Below are positions 17,294 through 61,724 of a stretch of DNA of 64,000 nt, in pieces. The notes beneath the pieces were generated by a model. That model was not told the origin of the DNA and made no database searches. It worked only from the letters and a program-made list of their open reading frames with translations. The position numbers and the translations under genes are program-made. Within the stretch, counting starts at the first letter, position 1. The number at the start of each line of letters is the position of its first letter. The DNA is from Nitrosopumilus sp. (GTDB lineage: Archaea; Thermoproteota; Nitrososphaeria; Nitrososphaerales; Nitrosopumilaceae): assembly GCA_965207075.1 (NCBI GenBank), contig CBDBLO010000002.1:2214-66213 (forward strand), in the 5' to 3' direction.

Positions 17294-18869
17294 TACGGAA
17301 TTCAAAAAATGCCCTAAATAGGGTTGGTGAGAAATTCATTTTCCACCACCCGCAAGCGGCGGGCGGATGGCACACCCTCGGGTCGATTCGGGATTCGCGC
17401 CTGAACGTGCTCCGAGTTTTAAAAATTTTAGGTACAATGCCTCAGTCGATCCGGGTGTGTGCGCGGCGGGCGCGCAGATAAAGATATAACGGTAATTTAC
17501 CGTACAAATACTATGTTTACGTACCGAAAGTACCGCGTGCGCGCGTTGCTGACCGCGGAGCAGAGGGGGGAGATCCGGCGCCTGCGCGACGGACAGCGCC
17601 AGGCATACAACTGGGCCGTCTCAAGGCTGAGGGAGGGGTGGCCCCGGAACGACGAGTACGGGCTCTACAGGGAGCTCACCGCACAGAGGAGCAGGCACGA
17701 CTGGCTCCGCGCCGTCCCGGCTGTCATACAGCGCGCCGGAATCCGCGACGCGTTCACGGCCTCCAGGCTGTCGGCGCGGTACGGCCGCGGCGAGCCAAAG
17801 TACCGCTCCAGGAAACGCGGCCCGGGCGCGCTCAGGTGCCCGTTGGCGCCCCGCATGGTGGATCCGTGCCGCATCAGGCTCCCCTGCTTTGGCGCGGTAC
17901 GCGCGTGCATCCCGGATGAGATCATGGAATACGAGCCGCGCGCATACGAGTTCGTCCCGCACAAGGGCGGCTATCTGCTGTACGTGTCGTGCCGCGTCGC
18001 CGTGCAGGGTCAGCGGCCGCCGTCCGACGGGCCGGGCGCCTCGCGCGTGACGGTCAAGGGCGTCGACCGCGGTACGGTCGAGCCAACCGTCGTCGTCACG
18101 CTGAACCCGGACGGCAGCACGAGGAGCAAGGACACGTATGACACGGCGGCGCCCTTCCGCGACGACAGGGCCGGGCATCAGAGGAGGCAGTCCAGAATGA
18201 GCAGGAGGATGAACAGGCGCTCCGGGAGATACAGGCGGCTCCGCGCCAAGACGAGGGGGCAGCTGCGGAGAGTACGAAACCGCCGGACATACGCGGAGTG
18301 CGTGGCCGCAAAGCACGTCGTGGACGACTACAGCCCCCACACCATAGTGCTCGAGAGCCTGAACCTGTCCGGGATGACCCGCCGCGGCGGCCCTTGCAAA
18401 AAGGGCATGAACCGCGAGATGCGCTTTGTCCGACACCATGCAGTCGAGCAGCGCATCCGCAACCGCGCAGAGATGCGCGGGATCCGCGTAACCGCGACCA
18501 GCCCGCATTACACCTCGCAGACATGCTCGCGCTGCGGCCGCGTGGACGCGAAATCCAGGGTCACGCGCGACATGTTCAAGTGCACAGGGTGCCATTACAT
18601 TCAGCACGCGGATGTCAATGCCGCGTTGAACATCGGAAGGCAGGGACTGCCGACGCCTTCTGACGAGGACACGCAAGAGGCAGTCCCCGACGGAGGTTGG
18701 AACCCCTTCGTGAGACGCGAACTGGACGTGCGCCTCAATTGTTTTGTCGAGGGCCCCGCAAGGGGGCGCGAGAACCAAGTGCCTGCACGTCACCTTGCCC
18801 ACATGGGCATGGAGAAAGAACGTCAAAGGACCAATGGGGCCCGCAAGGGCTGAAGTTGGTACCAACCCC
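17286..18869 (+). mobile_element. TnpB-only element 1 with 19-bp imperfect TIRs and a 9-bp TSD
   Basis: TSD GGCCGAAGA at 17277-17285 and 18870-18878; left end GGGTCTGATACGGAATTCA; right end reverse complement GGGGTTGGTACCAACTTCA. Confidence 0.9.
17513..18853 (+). CDS. tnpB: TnpB RNA-guided endonuclease
   Basis: N-terminal HTH (YRVRALLTAEQ); RuvC D (GVDRG), E (VLESL), D (ADVNAA); zinc finger CSRC/CTGC. Confidence 0.93.
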   Translation: MFTYRKYRVRALLTAEQRGEIRRLRDGQRQAYNWAVSRLREGWPRNDEYGLYRELTAQRSRHDWLRAVPAVIQRAGIRDAFTASRLSARYGRGEPKYRSRKRGPGALRCPLAPRMVDPCRIRLPCFGAVRACIPDEIMEYEPRAYEFVPHKGGYLLYVSCRVAVQGQRPPSDGPGASRVTVKGVDRGTVEPTVVVTLNPDGSTRSKDTYDTAAPFRDDRAGHQRRQSRMSRRMNRRSGRYRRLRAKTRGQLRRVRNRRTYAECVAAKHVVDDYSPHTIVLESLNLSGMTRRGGPCKKGMNREMRFVRHHAVEQRIRNRAEMRGIRVTATSPHYTSQTCSRCGRVDAKSRVTRDMFKCTGCHYIQHADVNAALNIGRQGLPTPSDEDTQEAVPDGGWNPFVRRELDVRLNCFVEGPARGRENQVPARHLAHMGMEKERQRTNGARKG

Positions 18870-53558: not shown

Positions 53559-54299
53559 ATGGACCTCTTCCTGGACATCGAGACCGCGCCGGACATGACC
53601 GCATCGGAGTACGCGGACGCAGGCAGGCGCATGGAACAGGGCATACTCACGAAACAGTCGGATCCCGACACGTACTGGAAGGCGAAAAAGGGGGCCCTCA
53701 ACGCGGTGGACGGCAAGGTCATACTGATTACATACCGGCTCGGCGAGCACGGCCCCGTGCGCCGCCTCGCGGAGTGGGAGTCGGACGAAAAAACCATACT
53801 CGCCGAATTCTACGGGATGCTCTCAAAGTTCCAGAGGATCAGGGGCTTCCGGATCATAGGGCACAACCTGACCCGGTTCGACCTGCCGTTCCTGTACGCC
53901 AGGATGCTGCACCACAACATAGACGGCGAACGCGAGGTATACCGCAGGCTGGTGGAGGGGGTGGTGGTATGCGACACGCTGCAGATGCATCTGCCGCTCA
54001 ACGACTACGACATAGCGGGGCTCAGGCACGACACGCTGATGCACGCGTACGGGCTGCCCGTCAAGGGGACCTCCGGGGGCGACGAGATACGGCACTACTT
54101 TGACGGCGAGTACGAAAGGATACTGGAGTACTCGGAGAGGGAGTTCCTGTACGCCGAGCTGTTCGCGCGCATGAGGGAGGGGGGCATGGTATCAGCCGAG
54201 AGGCTGAAGGATGCTGTGGAGGAGATGCAAAAGAGGAGGCAGCAACAAAACGGGGGGGAGAACGGTGCGCAGGACGCGGACGGCGTAGCCGGCGCTTGA
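53559..54299 (+). CDS. PolB-like 3'-5' exonuclease (RNase H fold)
   Basis: FLDIETAP (ExoI), EKTIL.EF, IIGHNLTRFDLPFL (ExoII). Confidence 0.8.
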   Translation: MDLFLDIETAPDMTASEYADAGRRMEQGILTKQSDPDTYWKAKKGALNAVDGKVILITYRLGEHGPVRRLAEWESDEKTILAEFYGMLSKFQRIRGFRIIGHNLTRFDLPFLYARMLHHNIDGEREVYRRLVEGVVVCDTLQMHLPLNDYDIAGLRHDTLMHAYGLPVKGTSGGDEIRHYFDGEYERILEYSEREFLYAELFARMREGGMVSAERLKDAVEEMQKRRQQQNGGENGAQDADGVAGA

Positions 54300-54383
54300 C
54301 GGCCGCGGCCTGCAATCGGAATACAGTACAGGCGGCGGAGGCGGAGGCGGTTACTGCCATGCGGGAGGCCGCAAAGACTTTTT

Positions 54384-55286
54384 TTGACCGCATGCCGGCG
54401 CGGCCACATGTGGCGCACCCCGACTGGAACGCAGAAAAAGCCGTCTGATACGCACGCCGAGAACATCGCAAGGAACCCGGACGACTACCGCGTGCTGGAG
54501 AGGGTCCCCCTGCGTTATGACGACGTCCCGATAAGGTTTGCAGAACCTCGCGATGACGACACCACCGTCGTTATCGTGGACTTTGAGACCACGGGGCTCA
54601 GCCACGACGCGGATAAGGTCATAGAGATCGGCATGGTGCGGTGCCGTTACGACCCGGAGGGAAGGCTCGCCGGAATAGACGAGGCACTCGACATGTTCGA
54701 GGATCCCGGCGAGCCCATATCCGACAACATAACCGAGCTGACCGGGATAACGGACGACATGGTGCGGGGCAAGCGCATCGACACGGATAAAGTGCGCGAC
54801 ATGATCCGCGGCGATCCCGTAATGGCGGCCCACAACGCAAAGTTCGACCGCCCGTTCTTTGACCGCATCGTGCCAAACGACCACAGGTGGAAGTGCACCA
54901 TGGAGGAGATACCGTGGTGGGATCTGGGGCACGGCACGCGGGGGCTGGGCGAGCTCCTGATGCGCGAGGGGTGGTTCTTTGACCACCACAGGGCGCACGC
55001 GGACTGCCTTGCGACCGCGTGGCTGCTGAGCGTGGTGCCGGGCAGCCTGCACCTCATGCTGGAGCCGTCCGTAAGGGTGGTCGCCCACGGCAACAGCTTT
55101 GACGTCAAGGACGAGCTAAAAGGCCGGGGATACAAGTGGAACCAGACGGAGAGGTACTGGTGGACCAGCACCAAGGATGGCGCGGACGAGGAGCTGGAGT
55201 ACCTGCGCAACCTGTACCCGGACGGCTACAAGGCCAAGGCGACGGAGATCGACCCGCGCACGGCGTACAGGCTGCCAGGTGGCTGA
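54384..55286 (+). CDS. DnaQ/epsilon-like DEDDh 3'-5' exonuclease
   Basis: IVDFETTGL, AAHNAKFDRPF and HHRAHADC motifs; start uncertain (TTG 54384 or ATG 54408). Confidence 0.88.
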   Translation: MTACRRGHMWRTPTGTQKKPSDTHAENIARNPDDYRVLERVPLRYDDVPIRFAEPRDDDTTVVIVDFETTGLSHDADKVIEIGMVRCRYDPEGRLAGIDEALDMFEDPGEPISDNITELTGITDDMVRGKRIDTDKVRDMIRGDPVMAAHNAKFDRPFFDRIVPNDHRWKCTMEEIPWWDLGHGTRGLGELLMREGWFFDHHRAHADCLATAWLLSVVPGSLHLMLEPSVRVVAHGNSFDVKDELKGRGYKWNQTERYWWTSTKDGADEELEYLRNLYPDGYKAKATEIDPRTAYRLPGG

Positions 55287-56740
55287 CCCCGGGGACGTCC
55301 GGCGCACCCGTGGCCCGGGGATCACGCGCCAGCCCTGTCCCTTAATTCGCGCAACTTTGCAGCGGTATCGGCATTGTCGGCCTCGTGCTTGGATATATGA
55401 TCCCTGTACGCGGAAATTTCGGCCCCAATATCGTCTATCTCCGACGCGTTTGCGGAGTTCGCCTCCCTGTGCAGAGGGGCGTTACATAATCCCAGAAGGC
55501 GCTCTATCTCATGGTCATTGTGCCTCTGGCATTATTCCAACGCGCGTATGTCGCTGTCAATCCCTCGAATCATTTGACCGCTCCTCGTATGATTCCGCAA
55601 GGCGCCTTGCCATCTCGGCCAGTTCGGCGTGTCCCATCTTTTCTGCAAGGTCCCCGACCTTGCGGCACCTGTTGATTTCAAGGGCATAGTTTGCCATGCC
55701 GTATGTCGCGTCGTTCGGCATAAAAATATTGCCGCAGGCAGTCGGTCGCGTACAGGCTGGCCATGCAGAGGGTCAAGAAGTGGTCCGAGGTGGGGTGGGG
55801 GACCACGAGCCGGAAAAGAGGGGCGGCAGGAAAAGGACGCGGGGCCAGAAGATCATTGGGGTGTACGCGGTCTTTGCCACCGACCTTGCCGCGGCGACCG
55901 TGCGGGGCCGCAGGCCGGCAGGCCGTCATGCGCGGCCAGAGAACAGCTCGCGCACCAGGAACACGTGCTCTAGAAGGGCACTGCCCAGCATCTTTTTGCC
56001 AAAGCCGGCCGAGTCCGGGATGTCCCGCACGTATGACGCGGCCCTGCGTCCGGGATCGGGCACGCCGCCTCCACGTATGCTTTTTACCTGCTCCAGTATG
56101 TCATGCAACATGCGCGCCGCCTCGGACTTTGTAACCTCCCCGTCCAGACACCTGCGCACATGCACGGAGTATGCGCACAGCAACAGCAGCACGTCCGTGA
56201 CGTGCTCGGTCTTTCTGTACCTGTGCTTTTTTGCCAGGTACGTCCCCTGAAAGTTGTTGTAGCGCTTGGCCTGCCTGTCAGTGACACTGACTGCGGACTT
56301 TAGGTTCAGGAGCCCGAAAACGGAGCCGGTGACGCTTGCAATAATGTCAGGTATGCCATACCTCGGCTCGCGTGCAAAATGCTCCGTCTTGAAACCAGTC
56401 ATGACCTCAAACGCGCCAAGTGACACTTCAAGATCCCGCCTTGTGGAGGATTTTAACAAAAGACCTAGGTCGTAGACCTGCTTTGCGATCTCAGTCTGCT
56501 TAGAGGGCCGGAGCCCGATCGTCCCAAGCGCCAGGGTCGTAAGCTTGTCGCCCAGCAGGGAGCCCTTCGAGAGTATGCGCATGTCATGGGCGGTCTCGAA
56601 GCCAAAGAGCTCGAACCCGGATCTCTTCAGCTCCGAGTCCGGGTGCACGTCCACATCGCAGAAAAAGTCCACCTTGACATACCTTCTCCCGCCCAGGCAG
56701 GAGTCGTAGTATACCCGGTACGAGACCAGGTTGTCAAGCG

Positions 56741-58217
56741 GGGGTTGGTACGGAATTCAAAAAATGTTCTAAATGGGGGTTGGTGCCAAATTCATTTTCC
56801 ACCACTCGCAAGCGGCGGGCGTGCAGAAAGATATAAACGGTAATTTACCGTACAAATACTATGTTTACATACCGAAAGTACCGCGTGCGCGCGTTGCTGA
56901 CCGCGGAGCAGAGGGGGGAGATCCAGCGCCTGCGCGACGGGCAGCGCCAGGCGTACAACTGGGCCGTCTCAAGGCTGAGGGAGGGGTGGTCCCGGAATGA
57001 CGAGTACGGGCTCTACGGGGAGCTCACCGCGCAGAGGAGCAGGCACGACTGGCTCCGCGTCATCCCGGTTGTCATACAGCGCGCCGGAATCCGCGACGCG
57101 TTCACGGCCTCCAAGCTGTCGGCGCGGTACGGCCGCGGCGAGCCAAAGTACCGCTCCCGGAAGCGCGACCCGGGCGCGCTCAGGTGCCCGTCGGCTCCCC
57201 GCGTGGTGGATCCGTGCCGCATCAGACTCCCCGGCTTTGGCGCGGTACGCGCGCGCATCCCGGAGGAGATCATGGAATACGAGCCGCGCGCATATGAGTT
57301 CGTCCCGCACAAGGGCGGCTATCTGCTGTACGTGTCGTGCCGCGTCGCCGTGCAGGGGCAGCGGCCGCCGTCCGGCGGGCCGGGCGCCTCGCGCGTGACG
57401 GTCAAGGGCATCGACCGCGGTACGGTCGAGCCAACCGTCGTCGTCACGCTGAACCCGGACGGCAGCACGAGGAGCAAGGACTCGTATGACACGGCGGCGC
57501 CCTTCCGCGACGACAGGGCCGGGCATCAGAGGAGGCAGTCCAGAATGAGCAGGAGGATGAACAGGCGCTCCGGGAGATACAGGCGGCTCCGCGCCAAGAC
57601 GAGGGGGCAGCTGCGGAGAGTACGAAACCGCCGGACATACGCGGAGTGCGTGGCCGCAAAGCACGTCGTGGACGACTACAGCCCCCACACCATAGTGCTC
57701 GAGAGCCTGAACCTGTCCGGGATGACCCGCCGCGGCGGCCCTTGCAAAAAGGGCATGAACCGCGAGATGCGCTTTGTCCGACACCATGCAGTCGAGCAGC
57801 GCATCCGCAACCGCGCAGAGATGCGCGGGATCCGCGTAACCGCGACCAGCCCGCATTACACCTCGCAGACGTGCGCGCGCTGCGGCCGCGTGGACGCGAA
57901 ATCCAGGGTCACGCGCGACATGTTCAAGTGCACAGGGTGCCATTACATTCAGCACGCGGACGTCAATGCCGCGTTGAACATCGGAAGGCAGGGACTGCCA
58001 ACGCCTTCTGACGAGGACACGCCGGAGGCAGTCCCCGACGGAGGTTGGAACCCCTTCGTGAGACGCGAACTGGACGTGCGCCTCAATTGTTTTGTCGAGG
58101 GCCCCGCGAGGGGGCGCGAGAACCAAGTGCCTGCACGTCACCTTGCCCACCTGGGCATGGAGAAAGAACGTCAAAGGACCAATGGGGCCCGCAAGGGCTG
58201 AATTTGGTACCAACCCC
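56741..58217 (+). mobile_element. TnpB-only element 2 with 19-bp TIRs and a 9-bp TSD
   Basis: TSD TGTCAAGCG at 56732-56740 and 58218-58226; TIRs GGGGTTGGTACGGAATTCA / GGGGTTGGTACCAAATTCA (17/19). Confidence 0.95.
56861..58201 (+). CDS. tnpB: TnpB RNA-guided endonuclease (close copy of 17513..18853)
   Basis: GIDRG / VLESL / ADVNAA RuvC triad; CARC/CTGC zinc finger. Confidence 0.93.
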   Translation: MFTYRKYRVRALLTAEQRGEIQRLRDGQRQAYNWAVSRLREGWSRNDEYGLYGELTAQRSRHDWLRVIPVVIQRAGIRDAFTASKLSARYGRGEPKYRSRKRDPGALRCPSAPRVVDPCRIRLPGFGAVRARIPEEIMEYEPRAYEFVPHKGGYLLYVSCRVAVQGQRPPSGGPGASRVTVKGIDRGTVEPTVVVTLNPDGSTRSKDSYDTAAPFRDDRAGHQRRQSRMSRRMNRRSGRYRRLRAKTRGQLRRVRNRRTYAECVAAKHVVDDYSPHTIVLESLNLSGMTRRGGPCKKGMNREMRFVRHHAVEQRIRNRAEMRGIRVTATSPHYTSQTCARCGRVDAKSRVTRDMFKCTGCHYIQHADVNAALNIGRQGLPTPSDEDTPEAVPDGGWNPFVRRELDVRLNCFVEGPARGRENQVPARHLAHLGMEKERQRTNGARKG

Positions 58218-58543
58218 TGTCAAGCGGATACGGATTCCGTGGAACGTACTCCTCGCACAGGATTCCGGGCGGGGCGCCGCTTATGCCGCCCATGACGCCC
58301 CTTGTCTCGTCGACGGTCAGCCCTGTCAGAAGGTCAACGTCCACGCTCAGCCTCCTGGCCGCGCCGTCGGCCGTGTGGAACGGCATGCACATGCCCCCCC
58401 CCCTCGTGACGCAGTCCGCCCTCCGCGCTATGCGCGCGTGCACCTCAAAATCCATGATGAATTTTTCAATGGCCAGCTTGTCCCTGAACCCGTACCGTTC
58501 CGATATGGACGAGATGCTGTCCTCCTCAAGCAGCGCGGAATAC

Positions 58544-60472
58544 TCAGGACTGTCCAGCGCGTCCGCCTCCCAGGTATCCGTCGACGCCGTCCAGCAGTTT
58601 TCTGCGCCTTGCAAGCGACCGGAGTCTCTTTTCCGACGCAAGGCCGCTCCGGAGCAGCTCCGACAGTATCCCGTCCAGCTCGTCGCCGTACATGGTCAGC
58701 GTTCCCCTGCGCACCTCGGAGTAGAGGTCGAGCCAGGCTTTTTCCGGGGGGGCCCACGTGGTCGCCGGCCGCTCCGCGTACTCCCGTATTATTATGAGCC
58801 TGCTGCCGACGCCGGAGATTCCAAGGACGGCATCCACCTCGGCCGGCCTTGGCTCCAGCAGCGCGACGAACCTCCCCCCCGCGTGGTCCTGTACGGCCTC
58901 CAGTACCTGCTGCCCCGCCCCGGGCACCGTGTGGATGACGTAGACCATCTTGCCATACGCGTTGTGCAGAAAGGGGGCCAGCGTGCTCAGGCCGGTAAAC
59001 TGAAAGCCGTGTCTTATGGCGTCGGCCAGGTGGCCGTGCAGGTCCACGAGCTCGCCTGCGGGGGAGTAGGCGGGCGTCAGCACCGCGCCGCCGCCGCCGC
59101 CATTTCTCGGTCCGGTTCTCCTTGGAGCCGGGTCGGCCACGAGCCTGCCTACGAGCTCGCCCCACCTCCTGTTTCTGTCGCGGACAAAGTCGGCATACCT
59201 TGCCGGGTTGCCGGCCACAAGCTCCGACTCTACGCGTACCAGGCTCAGGAGCAACAGCGGGTTCTTGAAGATCATAAACATCTCGCTTGACCTGTTGACT
59301 GTGATCTTGAGGCCGTCGTCGGCAAAGTCCAGGCCGTATATGCCGCCGTCCTTGGCGTCCTCGAACGCGACGTCCATCCTCCCCGCCTCGCCCCGGACGG
59401 CAAAGCGGCCCGTCCTGCGCAGCAGTGACCTGGCGTTTGCGGCGCTCATCCTTGCGTCCAAGAGGGGGGTACTCCCCGCGTCATCCGCGAATATGCGGCG
59501 TATGTCAAGCGAGTCCTGTCTCCTTGACGGCGAGTCACGGATGCATTTCAGCACGGCCGGGTCCTTCCCAAAGCCCTTGACGGCCTCTTCGTATTCCAGC
59601 GAGTCCTCCAAGAACCCCGTCTTGTGAAAGTTTACCGGAACGTGGTCGATGGATATCTCCCCGACCACTCTGGCCATCTCCGGATGGCTCCTTATGCCGA
59701 ACTTGTCAAAGGCCCTTATGAGGCGCCCTCTCCGGTAGAGGTGCATCCCGTAGTCGCCCTTGATCGACCGCCTCCTCAAGAGTCCGACCCAGCCGGCTAT
59801 CCGGCCGCCGCTTGGGAGCCTTACGTCGACGTCCTGCCGCGTGCCTTCCTCGAGTTCCGGTTCGGCGGGCCTGCAGTCCTTGGAGTTGACCGTTATGCGG
59901 GCCCTGCCGTCCCTGAGGTACGGACCGTACCTTATTGCAAACCGTTTCTTAAAGTTCGAGAGCTGGTTGGAATACAGCGGAACCTTGAGCTTGCTGATCG
60001 TTATCTTGGTGCCGTGCCAGTCGCCGGACTTGTCGGACTCCTCGATCTCAAAGTTGGTCCAGTCCCTTGACCCGTCCCCCAGCCACTGATCCTCGTCATA
60101 TCTGGCCACAAGTTTTGTCCCCGGGCCCGGCCTGGACGTAACTATCGAGAATGCCTTGCCGAGGCTGGAGCAGGCCCCCTTCATTCCCATGCCGAACCTG
60201 CCCAGACTGCCGTCCTTTTTTGTCTCCCTTGCGACGGTCAGCGCGTCCCGCAGCTGGGGCAGGTTCATCCCCAAGCAGTCGTCTGTCACCGTAACCTGCC
60301 TCCTGCCAAAGTCCAGCTGCAGGCGGATGCGGCACGTCTCGCCCTCGATTCTTGCGTCAATCGAGTTGTCCACCAGCTCTGCGACCGCCTGTTCGGTCCT
60401 GTATCCGACGAGGCCCAACTTCTTGATCAGGCTCTTGTCAGGGGTGATGTCTACGGGAATCGTCCGCGCCAT
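58544..60472 (-). CDS. GHKL (MORC/MutL-like) ATPase fused to a C-terminal AbiEi-like domain
   Basis: AVAELVDNSID, VTDDCLGM, GRFGMGMK, HGTKITI GHKL boxes; C-terminal PEKAWLDLY resembles AbiEi antitoxin C-termini. Confidence 0.8.
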   Translation of the reverse strand: MARTIPVDITPDKSLIKKLGLVGYRTEQAVAELVDNSIDARIEGETCRIRLQLDFGRRQVTVTDDCLGMNLPQLRDALTVARETKKDGSLGRFGMGMKGACSSLGKAFSIVTSRPGPGTKLVARYDEDQWLGDGSRDWTNFEIEESDKSGDWHGTKITISKLKVPLYSNQLSNFKKRFAIRYGPYLRDGRARITVNSKDCRPAEPELEEGTRQDVDVRLPSGGRIAGWVGLLRRRSIKGDYGMHLYRRGRLIRAFDKFGIRSHPEMARVVGEISIDHVPVNFHKTGFLEDSLEYEEAVKGFGKDPAVLKCIRDSPSRRQDSLDIRRIFADDAGSTPLLDARMSAANARSLLRRTGRFAVRGEAGRMDVAFEDAKDGGIYGLDFADDGLKITVNRSSEMFMIFKNPLLLLSLVRVESELVAGNPARYADFVRDRNRRWGELVGRLVADPAPRRTGPRNGGGGGAVLTPAYSPAGELVDLHGHLADAIRHGFQFTGLSTLAPFLHNAYGKMVYVIHTVPGAGQQVLEAVQDHAGGRFVALLEPRPAEVDAVLGISGVGSRLIIIREYAERPATTWAPPEKAWLDLYSEVRRGTLTMYGDELDGILSELLRSGLASEKRLRSLARRRKLLDGVDGYLGGGRAGQS

Positions 60473-60770
60473 GATTACGAGCAATATGTGAGAATATTAT
60501 ATATTTTCTCTGTTTTCGCTCGTAGAATCATAATGTTAAATGCAATCTTATTATGAGAATAACGCCGAAATTCTCGTAAATTGCTCGTTAAGCCGGACGC
60601 GGCTGCCGCCTTTTTTGGGCTACAGGCAGGCAGGCAGGCAGAGGCGGCGGCATTCACAGGCAGCCGGACGCGCGCAGAACCGCCAAGTTGAGCTGGACGC
60701 CGTCCGGGGCGCGGCCCCGCATGATCCGCGGCCGTCCCGCCGCGCCCCGCCGCCGTCGGGAACCTCCGCG

Positions 60771-61724
60771 TCACACCCTGGGCATGCAGCACTTTTTGTA
60801 CTTCTTACCGGAGCCGCAGGGGCAGGGCTCGTTCCTGCCCGTCTTCCGGCTTGCGGGAAGGGACAAGGGCGCGTCCGCGGGCCCGCCGTGGCCCGGGCCG
60901 TAGAGATAGTCGTCGCGGTACGAGAATATGTCCATGGGATCCATCGAATTGTCCACCCGCGACGTTGGGAGGCTACCCGCATAAACTTGGTCGAGGGTAG
61001 ACACGTCATAAAAGTCACTGCGGATGAATCTGGTCTCCACCGCGTCCTTTAGGTATTCGTACAGGTCCGGATCCCTCAGATCGAGCAGCGAGTCGACCAG
61101 CATCATTCTCGTACCGTCGTCCGCCTCCCTTTGCGCCGCGTCCTTTATCGACGCGACTATTCCGGGCCTTGCCTCTGGGTGCTTTGAGGCCGTGATAACC
61201 AGCGCCTCTGCCGCGGCACACCGCACGTACGTGTCGGCACCGACATGCCGCATGAGCGCCGTCGTTGATGGTATGGCCCCGGTCCCCATGTGCGCCAGTA
61301 TGTATGGCGCGTCATCCGTCAGCCAGTCGCCGGTCTCCTCGTAGTGATCGAGGATGGCCGCGTTTACGGCCAGCTGCGCTCGGTAGTGGCCGATCTTGGC
61401 CAAGAGGTGAATTGCGCACACCGGCGCCCACGCGTTGTGGGCTTTCCAGTACTCGTCGTACGTCGCAATCCGGGCCAGGTGCGGGAACGTCTCCTCCCTT
61501 GCGTCCAAGATGCCCCTGACAACCTCCTCGTCCGCGTGCATCCCCTCCGACTCCAGTACCCTGATCCTGGCTGCGGTGTCCAACGGGTAGCGTCGAATGC
61601 CGCAACGGATTAACGTTGCCACGCGGCGGTTCTGGCAAATCCTCGGCATCCGCGGCGGCGACTGGTACCCCTTCTTCGGCGTCACTTTTGACTCGCGCCC
61701 AGTACACGCCGCGTCACGCGGCAA
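60771..61724 (-). CDS. HEAT-like (DUF1186-type) protein with a C-terminal SEC-C zinc motif
   Basis: KTGRNEPCPCGSGKKYKKCC; helical repeats; true start probably downstream of the ORF-track start. Confidence 0.8.
   Translation of the reverse strand: MPRDAACTGRESKVTPKKGYQSPPRMPRICQNRRVATLIRCGIRRYPLDTAARIRVLESEGMHADEEVVRGILDAREETFPHLARIATYDEYWKAHNAWAPVCAIHLLAKIGHYRAQLAVNAAILDHYEETGDWLTDDAPYILAHMGTGAIPSTTALMRHVGADTYVRCAAAEALVITASKHPEARPGIVASIKDAAQREADDGTRMMLVDSLLDLRDPDLYEYLKDAVETRFIRSDFYDVSTLDQVYAGSLPTSRVDNSMDPMDIFSYRDDYLYGPGHGGPADAPLSLPASRKTGRNEPCPCGSGKKYKKCCMPRV

Follow-up and report, generated by a model that had tools for sequence, protein, structure and literature searches.

A 64,000-nucleotide stretch of a Nitrosopumilus sp. 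contig (CBDBLO010000002.1, referred to here as the window) was analysed around a candidate defence operon, for which a first-pass annotation had proposed a fusion of a GHKL ATPase and an AbiEi-like domain, followed by an AbiEii-like nucleotidyltransferase. The locus was examined computationally for its domain identities, motif conservation, gene linkage and start-stop coupling, and for the disruption and polymorphism of its second gene. The first gene, intact at 58544..60472 (-), encodes the MORC-type ATPase/AbiEi-like fusion, a putative antitoxin-regulator of 642 residues starting with the ATG at 60472. A TTG at 60484 is possible as an upstream start, and the alignment of homologues favours the Met-Ala-Arg start at 60472; a TATA-like box, AAAATATATAATATT, is located at 60492-60506, that is 20-34 nt 5' of this start. 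Downstream and in the same orientation, the raw open reading frame (ORF) fragments 58171-58641 and 55926-56672 mark the second gene, a nucleotidyltransferase that is split by an inserted TnpB element. The family of the fusion protein comprised 431 clusters at E <= 1e-3, and the best 120 of these were mostly 45-60% identical over ~98% of its length. One homologue (P0002) is 98% identical to the window protein.

The N-terminal part of the fusion was assigned from conserved motifs and profile matches. A GHKL (Bergerat-fold) ATP-binding domain occupies residues ~24-126 (60095..60403 (-); Pfam HATPase_c_3, 2.5e-16, and HATPase_c, 2.8e-8), with the motifs E32-x3-N36-x2-D39, D64-x-C66-x-G68 and G91-x2-G94-x-G96-x-K98 in the window protein. 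It is followed by an S5-fold transducer domain at residues ~190-300 (59573..59905 (-); Pfam Morc6_S5), which carries the invariant stretch N281-F282-H-K284-T285-G286-F287. Across 39 homologues, E32, N36, D39, D64, G68, G91, G94, G96, K98 and K284 are invariant, and T155 is nearly so. The Morc6_S5 match of the window protein itself is weak (7e-4 in Pfam); the same model matched 39/39 aligned family members (best 2.3e-7), and one member scanned singly (P0081) reached 26.6 bits where the threshold is 26.2. The PDB sequence search with residues 1-317 gave MORC4, MORC3 and MORC2 as its sole matches, with the MORC4 alignment spanning both the GHKL part (residues 27-117) and the S5 part (residues 239-296). 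Judged from these matches, the N-terminus of the upstream protein is a MORC-type GHKL+S5 ATPase, MORC being the closest kind. The result is in accordance with the MORC/MutL-type ATPase and S5-like second domain of the first-pass annotation. No helix-turn-helix match was found in the N-terminal 300 residues of the window fusion, so that the winged helix expected of an AbiEi protein is missing from this region.

MORC modules are ATP-driven and dimerising, and are usually DNA clamps. The GHKL and S5 pair and the ATP-binding motifs are shared with prokaryotic MORC/paraMORC proteins (Iyer, Abhiman and Aravind 2008, PMC2292703) and with eukaryotic MORC2/3/4; unlike these, the window protein contains no CW zinc finger or coiled coil and has another C-terminal half. 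In that study paraMORC ATPases are linked to restriction-modification systems, and a term search of it returned neither a nucleotidyltransferase or toxin partner nor an AbiEi-type fusion for them (PMC2292703).

The C-terminal part of the fusion, at residues ~468-642 (58547..59071 (-)), is a putative toxin-neutralising domain of DUF6577/AbiEi type carrying the motifs FQFTGLSTL and PEKAWLDLY, the latter at residues 576-584 and (nearly) invariant in the family. Pfam DUF6577 matched 15 of the 39 family members over residues ~470-637, with two exceeding the gathering score. A profile of the last 178 residues, run against 1.84 billion representative proteins, found 125 proteins, which included fusions of 620-676 residues and many stand-alone proteins of 230-310 residues ending in this domain. 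All of the stand-alone proteins scanned (10/10) matched DUF6577 above threshold, and the N-terminal winged helix matched AbiEi_4 in 4/10, one of them at the Pfam threshold. Profile-profile comparison by hhalign joined the fusion domain to the stand-alone winged helix-turn-helix (wHTH)-DUF6577 family over 165 columns (probability 99.9, E 6.8e-36), pairing PEKAWLDLYxE of the fusions with ERAxVDLYFE of the stand-alone proteins. The PADLOC AbiEi models (PDLC02235, 02243, 02261, 02257) spanned the stand-alone proteins end to end (1e-12 to 1e-25) and directly matched 6 and 5 of the 39 fusions (best 2.5e-6). Because of these matches to stand-alone proteins and to some of the fusions, the C-terminal domain is, at the family level, of the AbiEi type as PADLOC defines it. 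For the window domain the assignment is made by transitivity, through the well-aligned family and the profile-profile comparison, as no model matched it directly. The PEKAWLDLY-type AbiEi-like domain predicted earlier is supported to this extent.

The nucleotidyltransferase gene is represented by a 5' fragment at 58227..58641 (-), which matches PADLOC AbiEii and carries motif I (GGG) and RRLSVDVD, and by a 3' fragment at 55926..56740 (-) (PADLOC AbiEii, 1.9e-7), which carries VKVD (D101), GDKL (D141 K142) and KQVYD (K163 D167). Residues are numbered from the methionine of 'MDFE'; motif I then lies at residues 19-21, and the codon of Ser37 at 58345-58347. Deletion of 56741-58226 (1486 nt) restored one in-frame ORF from both fragments, which scored 27.2 bits with Pfam AbiEii (threshold 22.5) and 6.8e-12 with PADLOC AbiEii. 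Among 22 orthologues, G20, G21, P25, R35, S37, D39, D41, D141, K142, G152, K163, D167 and F240 are invariant and D101 is kept in at least 90%; the orthologues in L002 and L162-L167 carry the precomputed Pfam label PF08843 (AbiEii/DUF1814). By family and motif, the downstream gene is an AbiEii (DUF1814) nucleotidyltransferase with all catalytic motifs, and the GG, RxSxDxD, DKL and KQVYD motifs listed for it in the first-pass annotation fall on invariant columns.

The two genes overlap, as had been described, by 98 or 71 nt, since the only canonical in-frame starts in the window lineage are TTG 58641 and TTG 58614. Another possible start of the 5' fragment is ATG 58455 ('MDFE'), and the gene of a 98%-related genome (L001) is called from this ATG, 88 nt past the ATPase stop. 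The overlap was considered as an artefact of ORF extension and this was rejected, since the apparent spacer before MDFE is conserved coding sequence: ~100 nt (~33 codons; ...I..IA.KYGF......VEKFIMDFE) are conserved in genomes of 22 to 57% GC. The PADLOC AbiEii alignment also extends across this part, and most relatives have an ATG, GTG or TTG within -10 to +8 nt of the ATPase stop (ATGA, TAATG, TGATG). The conserved extension and the start-stop arrangement indicate that the genes are translationally coupled or overlapping, like classical toxin-antitoxin operons.

The pairing was followed in 45 full-length fusion loci from species-representative genomes, of which 43 had room downstream and nearly all belonged to Nitrosopumilaceae, Cenarchaeum or other Thaumarchaeota. 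An intact nucleotidyltransferase follows the fusion immediately in 28/43 loci, and truncated or stop-containing remnants of it in 6/43. Intact two-gene copies, which the first-pass annotation had suggested looking for, are therefore common, and neither of the findings named there as refuting, a C-terminal domain unlike AbiEi and a lack of linkage elsewhere, was obtained. The same fusion and nucleotidyltransferase partner occur with a 32%-identical homologue in an unclassified archaeon, and several genomes hold two divergent copies of the ATPase fusion. With more than 400 homologues of full length and a pairing repeated across genomes of 22-57% GC, the arrangement is far beyond chance. A 56%-identical ATPase and nucleotidyltransferase pair was also seen on a Dehalococcoidia-binned contig (L007, CBDCTF010000004.1), which reflects either mis-binning or transfer to a bacterium of the shared habitat.

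The remaining 9/43 loci have the ATPase fusion and no nucleotidyltransferase, and the ATPase may thus have a function of its own. Two of these nine partnerless fusions sit just downstream of a second complete module, from which it follows that modules can occur in tandem. Together with the six loci that keep remnants only, the intact window ATPase beside its broken partner and the near restriction of the family to one archaeal lineage, the partnerless loci would suit a MORC-DUF6577 protein that acts in housekeeping or in chromatin or DNA processing, with the nucleotidyltransferase as a dispensable accessory enzyme and no toxin-antitoxin pair at all. This explanation is highly improbable. The nucleotidyltransferase belongs firmly to the AbiEii/DUF1814 toxin family and keeps every catalytic residue, the DUF6577 domain occurs almost only beside such enzymes, and the divergent or tandem copies at a patchy locus targeted by insertion sequences point to selfish or defence modules, not to housekeeping. 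Repeated loss or decay of the toxin beside an intact ATPase is in turn typical of toxin-antitoxin pairs.

The partner of the stand-alone DUF6577 proteins was surveyed in 80 metagenomic loci, where the nucleotidyltransferase was called with the profile of the thaumarchaeal toxin (E 1e-8 to 1e-46). It lies directly downstream in 62/80 loci, usually with a 4-nt overlap; 4 more are adjacent and were missed by the gap rule, and 7 loci are at a contig edge, which gives ~66/73 informative metagenomic loci (~90%). These partners are labelled PF08843 AbiEii by precomputed Pfam. The wHTH-DUF6577 and AbiEii operons, which are uncharacterised, occur in Bathyarchaeota, Nanohaloarchaea, Bacteroidetes and many metagenomic contigs. 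They share with the window module the C-terminal domain, the toxin subfamily (profile E down to 1e-46), the gene order and the start-stop overlap; their neutraliser of 230-310 residues begins with a ~65-residue winged helix (AbiEi_4/DeoR-like), whereas that of the window has 642 residues and a MORC ATPase head. A third architecture was observed on a single 3.6-kb contig (L167:403-3620, P0232), where DUF6577 (DUF6577/AbiEi, 1.4e-36) forms a fusion with an entire type I HsdS subunit (PADLOC Specificity_I, 6e-78). A PF08843 AbiEii gene lies 45 nt downstream and the preceding gene overlaps by 4 nt, and by its domain content this locus looks like a restriction-coupled AbiE variant. The N-terminal partners found for the DUF6577 domain, namely winged helix, HsdS and MORC, are all DNA-binding modules.

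Taken with these results, the locus is best read as a two-gene toxin-antitoxin module of the AbiE family whose antitoxin has exchanged its winged helix for a MORC ATPase; a probability of about 70% is assigned to this reading. The likeness to AbiE (Lactococcus lactis, Streptococcus agalactiae) and to MenA3/MenT3 (Rv1044/Rv1045) and MenA4/MenT4 of M. tuberculosis lies in the bicistronic, translationally coupled order with the neutraliser first, in the DUF1814/AbiEii toxin of Pol-beta type with its GG, RxS/TxDxD, DK and KxxxD motifs, and, at the family level, in a neutraliser C-terminal domain of the PADLOC AbiEi class. Unlike those systems, the neutraliser of the window has ~460 residues of GHKL+S5 and middle domain in place of the winged-helix head, its C-terminal domain belongs to the DUF6577 branch and not to the COG5340 branch of 6Y8Q (TM only 0.45), and the host is an archaeon of the Nitrosopumilaceae.

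Toxicity, neutralisation, phosphorylation, gating and any role in defence against viruses would follow for the window module by analogy with these studied systems. MenT toxins modify tRNA acceptor stems and so block translation (bioRxiv 10.64898/2026.01.19.700257; PMC11375011; PMC10435456). AbiEi binds AbiEii and leads to its auto-phosphorylation at T65, equivalent to MenT3 S78 and MenT1 T39 (bioRxiv 10.64898/2026.01.19.700257; PMC11375011). The type IV label given to AbiE in the first-pass annotation is thus the classical one, and the system is now argued to be type VII, with antitoxin-induced auto-phosphorylation of the toxin (bioRxiv 10.64898/2026.01.19.700257; PMC11375011; PMC10435456). 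Some members of the AbiE group give protection from phage. In the window module, the AbiEii nucleotidyltransferase would likewise add nucleotides to the acceptor ends of tRNA and thereby block translation, as MenT and AbiEii suggest. The predicted role of the DUF6577 (AbiEi-type) domain is to bind the toxin and hold it inactive, most likely through induced auto-phosphorylation, for which the invariant Ser37 of RRLSVDVD would be the acceptor. ATP binding or hydrolysis and DNA engagement by the MORC module would then decide whether the AbiEi-type domain restrains the toxin, and neutralisation would depend on a condition, such as the entry of foreign DNA or the action of a phage inhibitor on the ATPase; the first-pass annotation had likewise proposed that the ATPase gates toxin release on sensing infection.

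An alternative is that the GHKL domain is itself a protein kinase that phosphorylates the active-site serine of the toxin, with DUF6577 for docking, which would make the protein a type VII antitoxin of the true kinase type. Protein kinases do occur within the GHKL fold, among them histidine-kinase-like serine kinases such as SpoIIAB. The serine of RxSxDxD is invariant and, judged by its place in the motif, is the counterpart of the phospho-acceptor in MenT3 and AbiEii, and the ATP-binding and toxin-binding domains are in one polypeptide. The S5 transducer and its invariant lysine are, however, hallmarks of GHL ATPase clamps and not of kinases, and stand-alone DUF6577 antitoxins have no ATP-binding domain, yet are paired with the same toxin subfamily. 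The toxins of the studied systems, moreover, phosphorylate themselves (PMC11375011). The kinase explanation is accordingly considered improbable.

Several observations weigh against the AbiE-type reading of the fused module. The C-terminal 248 residues of the window protein were unmatched in the Pfam, PADLOC and NCBIfam scans. AlphaFold2 models of residues 318-642 (predicted local distance difference test, pLDDT, 80.6) and of the C-terminal domain only (58547-59080; pLDDT 87.2) gave for this domain an alpha/beta core followed by a helical bundle, and Foldseek against the PDB with both models returned no neighbour at E <= 1e-3. AbiEi of S. agalactiae (6Y8Q) was 43rd in the ranking (E 0.77; template modelling (TM) score 0.45/0.42). 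Of the model and structure checks suggested for this domain, PADLOC thus recovered AbiEi in the relatives, and the window copy and Foldseek gave nothing significant. Homology to the studied COG5340 AbiEi is not established, and the phosphorylation mechanism would be borrowed across this gap. On the toxin side, the nucleotidyltransferase profile does not reach the solved MenT structures by sequence. The allele of the window lineage also has an extra Gly in motif I (GGG against GG, in a C-homopolymer run) and an extra Leu, both confirmed in reads and not found in relatives; this extra Gly could impair toxin activity. In the ATPase of the same lineage the first Gly of the DxGxG box is replaced by Cys, and this substitution in the G1 box could impair ATPase activity. 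The partnerless ATPase loci described above count on this side as well.

Foldseek placed the aminoglycoside nucleotidyltransferase ANT(2'')-Ia first, without significance (E 0.028, probability 0.90, TM 0.47) and with a TM score close to that of 6Y8Q; the neutralising domain may have a nucleotidyltransferase-like fold in degenerate form. PDB sequence searches with profiles of the C-terminal half, the stand-alone family and the nucleotidyltransferase family, and with a single nucleotidyltransferase, found no AbiEi or MenT; the stand-alone-family profile gave only generic winged helices of CooA and Sul7s type. No match was obtained in PLSDB plasmids by tblastn with a stand-alone DUF6577 protein and its nucleotidyltransferase partner, and no DUF6577 relatives were found in the scan of viral contigs.

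The role of the MORC head within a toxin-antitoxin module may be seen in two ways. It may be the infection sensor of an AbiE-type system, either as a DNA clamp or as a guarded ATPase that controls silencing allosterically, with the HsdS-AbiEi fusion as its counterpart guarding a restriction enzyme; this proposal is tentative. A comparable logic is known from the PrrC anticodon nuclease, which is kept latent by the type Ic restriction enzyme EcoprrI. There too a translation-targeting toxin is silenced by a DNA-surveillance module and freed on disturbance, a logic that HsdS-DUF6577 with AbiEii would fit; the proteins are unrelated and the analogy is speculative. The other possibility is a plain toxin-antitoxin pair for addiction or stress, in which no infection is sensed and the MORC module is merely a DNA-binding, autoregulatory or tethering head that spends ATP on clamping. 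Since all known N-terminal partners of DUF6577 bind DNA, simple replacement of the head is as compatible with the data as gating. The classical AbiEi winged helix, moreover, works in autoregulation of the operon, and S. agalactiae AbiE was unprotective against 32 coliphages (bioRxiv 10.64898/2026.01.19.700257). A ~460-residue ATP-consuming module would nevertheless be costly in place of a ~65-residue winged helix, and the adjoining variable slot holds an AAA_15/AAA_21 ATPase pair in the 98%-identical relative. MORC/paraMORC ATPases and HsdS are typical of restriction or defence contexts (PMC2292703), and these contexts favour sensing or guarding somewhat. The plain pair is for these reasons regarded as rather unlikely.

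Between the ATPase and the neutralising domain lies a middle domain at residues ~318-445 (59138..59521 (-)), modelled as a four-stranded beta-meander with helices (AlphaFold2 pLDDT mostly 80-91). It has no recognisable relatives, and Foldseek against the PDB gave nothing below E 0.2. Membership of the fusion in other GHKL systems was considered. MzaB of the MZA system was rejected, as the NCBIfam model scored 37.4 bits against a cut-off of 850, over residues 20-144 only, and the neighbours are unrelated; the PADLOC MzaB model matched 39/39 family members weakly and in the GHKL domain only. A restriction enzyme of the BbrUII/HgiDII type was likewise rejected (NCBIfam BbrUII, 28 bits against a cut-off of 550, GHKL domain only). 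In all these cases only the N-terminal ~130-200 residues of the GHKL domain resemble the window protein, and the rest and the neighbourhood differ. The GHKL+S5 module was also seen in a separate family of 500-550 residues (L048-L079), with ~40% identity over residues 1-300. The C-terminus in that family is helical or coiled, with neither DUF6577 nor a nucleotidyltransferase neighbour, and its hosts are candidate phyla radiation (CPR) bacteria (Saccharibacteria, Parcubacteria), DPANN archaea and some Actinobacteria.

The nucleotidyltransferase is interrupted at codon 77, between motif II and motif III, by a TnpB-only insertion sequence of 1.48 kb (56741..58218 (+)). Its TnpB ORF at 56861-58201 encodes 446 residues and matches NCBIfam guided_TnpB (5e-42) and Pfam Cas12f1-like_TNB and HTH_OrfB_IS605. 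The element ends in 19-nt terminal inverted repeats (56741-56759 and 58199-58217), with a second left copy at 56776-56794, 35 nt inward, and a further copy of the terminal repeat occurs at 18852-18869 of the window. It is flanked by a target-site duplication of 8-10 nt, a direct repeat with a spacing of 1486 nt, of which the left copy, TGTCAAGCGG with the 8-nt core GTCAAGCG, is at 56732..56741 and the right copy at 58218..58227. Classical IS200/IS605-type TnpB elements are not known to have terminal inverted repeats or a target duplication. The 98%-related genome (L001) and another assembly (L009) contain the empty site with exactly the uninterrupted sequence. The dN/dS (ratio of non-synonymous to synonymous substitution rates) of the nucleotidyltransferase against an intact orthologue is 0.24, indicating that the gene was constrained until recently and that the disruption is recent.

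Public runs that contain the window sequence are sponge metagenomes or sponge-associated samples, and polymorphism was checked by placing metagenome contigs on 55300-60800. The joint in these contigs leaps exactly 1486 nt (56742 to 58229) in two runs. In another sponge metagenome the uninterrupted joint occurs exclusively (depth 185); in the sample of the window it is the minor form, with a depth of ~56 against ~161 in the flanks, and lies on a co-resident variant strain. In the source runs the TnpB element is covered 2-18 times as deeply as its flanks, from which it is taken to be multi-copy. The toxin is therefore disarmed in the strain of the window and not population-wide, and the ATPase gene is still intact. 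The earlier statement that the element inactivates the toxin holds for the split gene of this strain, and does not hold for the co-resident strain, which is intact at about one third of the depth. The disrupted and intact alleles, side by side in one sample, are a natural pair of knock-out and wild type.

Some features around the module are specific to the lineage. Immediately upstream of the ATPase gene lies a variable slot: in the window it contains a SEC-C motif/DUF1186/HEAT protein at 60771-61724(-), and in the 98%-related genome (L001:3743-5619) an AAA_15/AAA_21 ATPase with a 158-residue protein, a defence-like pair. Downstream of its toxin gene, that genome also contains an insert of 2.5 kb that includes a DUF4344 metallopeptidase. 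Downstream of the module in the window, at 53559-55286(+), are two adjacent exonuclease-like genes, syntenic with the relative, which encode a PolB-exonuclease-like protein (DNA_pol_B_exo2, 1.2e-7) and an RNase_T/DEDD exonuclease (1e-15). The synonymous divergence (dS) from the 98%-related genome over 55929-60472 is 0.024 for the ATPase and 0.088 for the toxin gene, nearly four-fold apart, and this inequality between neighbouring genes hints at recombination within the module. Three lineage-specific 3-nt insertions, at 58394-58402 and 56184 in the toxin gene and at 58871 in the ATPase gene, were seen in contigs of the source sample, and neither another sponge metagenome nor the 98%-related genome contains them.

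Both the toxin and the neutralising domain belong to known kinds; the MORC-fused antitoxin and the use of DUF6577 as the AbiEi-type partner appear to be undescribed. Full-text literature searches found no paper naming DUF6577 and none joining AbiEii with GHKL, in agreement with the first-pass annotation, which did not recognise the fusion as any named system. A study comparing sponge Thaumarchaeota mentions, on the basis of Pfam counts, no more than 'a putative AbiE family system' (PMC7848895). As the PADLOC models do not label the window ATPase as AbiEi, a pipeline would at best list an orphan AbiEii here.

In the AbiE/MenAT-type antitoxins studied so far, a DNA-binding head and a neutralising domain are all that is present, so that no trigger for toxin release in infection or stress is apparent from them. 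MORC-type ATPases, from bacterial to human, act as clamps and sensors of DNA. Their fusion to an antitoxin offers a concrete and mutable candidate for the trigger, and the sister form builds in a type I restriction specificity subunit. If the sensing proposal is true, a family of AbiE systems would carry the trigger inside the antitoxin, and the archaeal (thaumarchaeal) members of MORC would gain their first partner and function. DUF6577 would gain a function as the AbiEi-type partner of AbiEii. The locus survey also shows that ammonia-oxidising archaea, sponge symbionts among them, carry an abundant and multi-copy module of toxin-antitoxin or defence-like type, in a group where few systems of this sort have been characterised.

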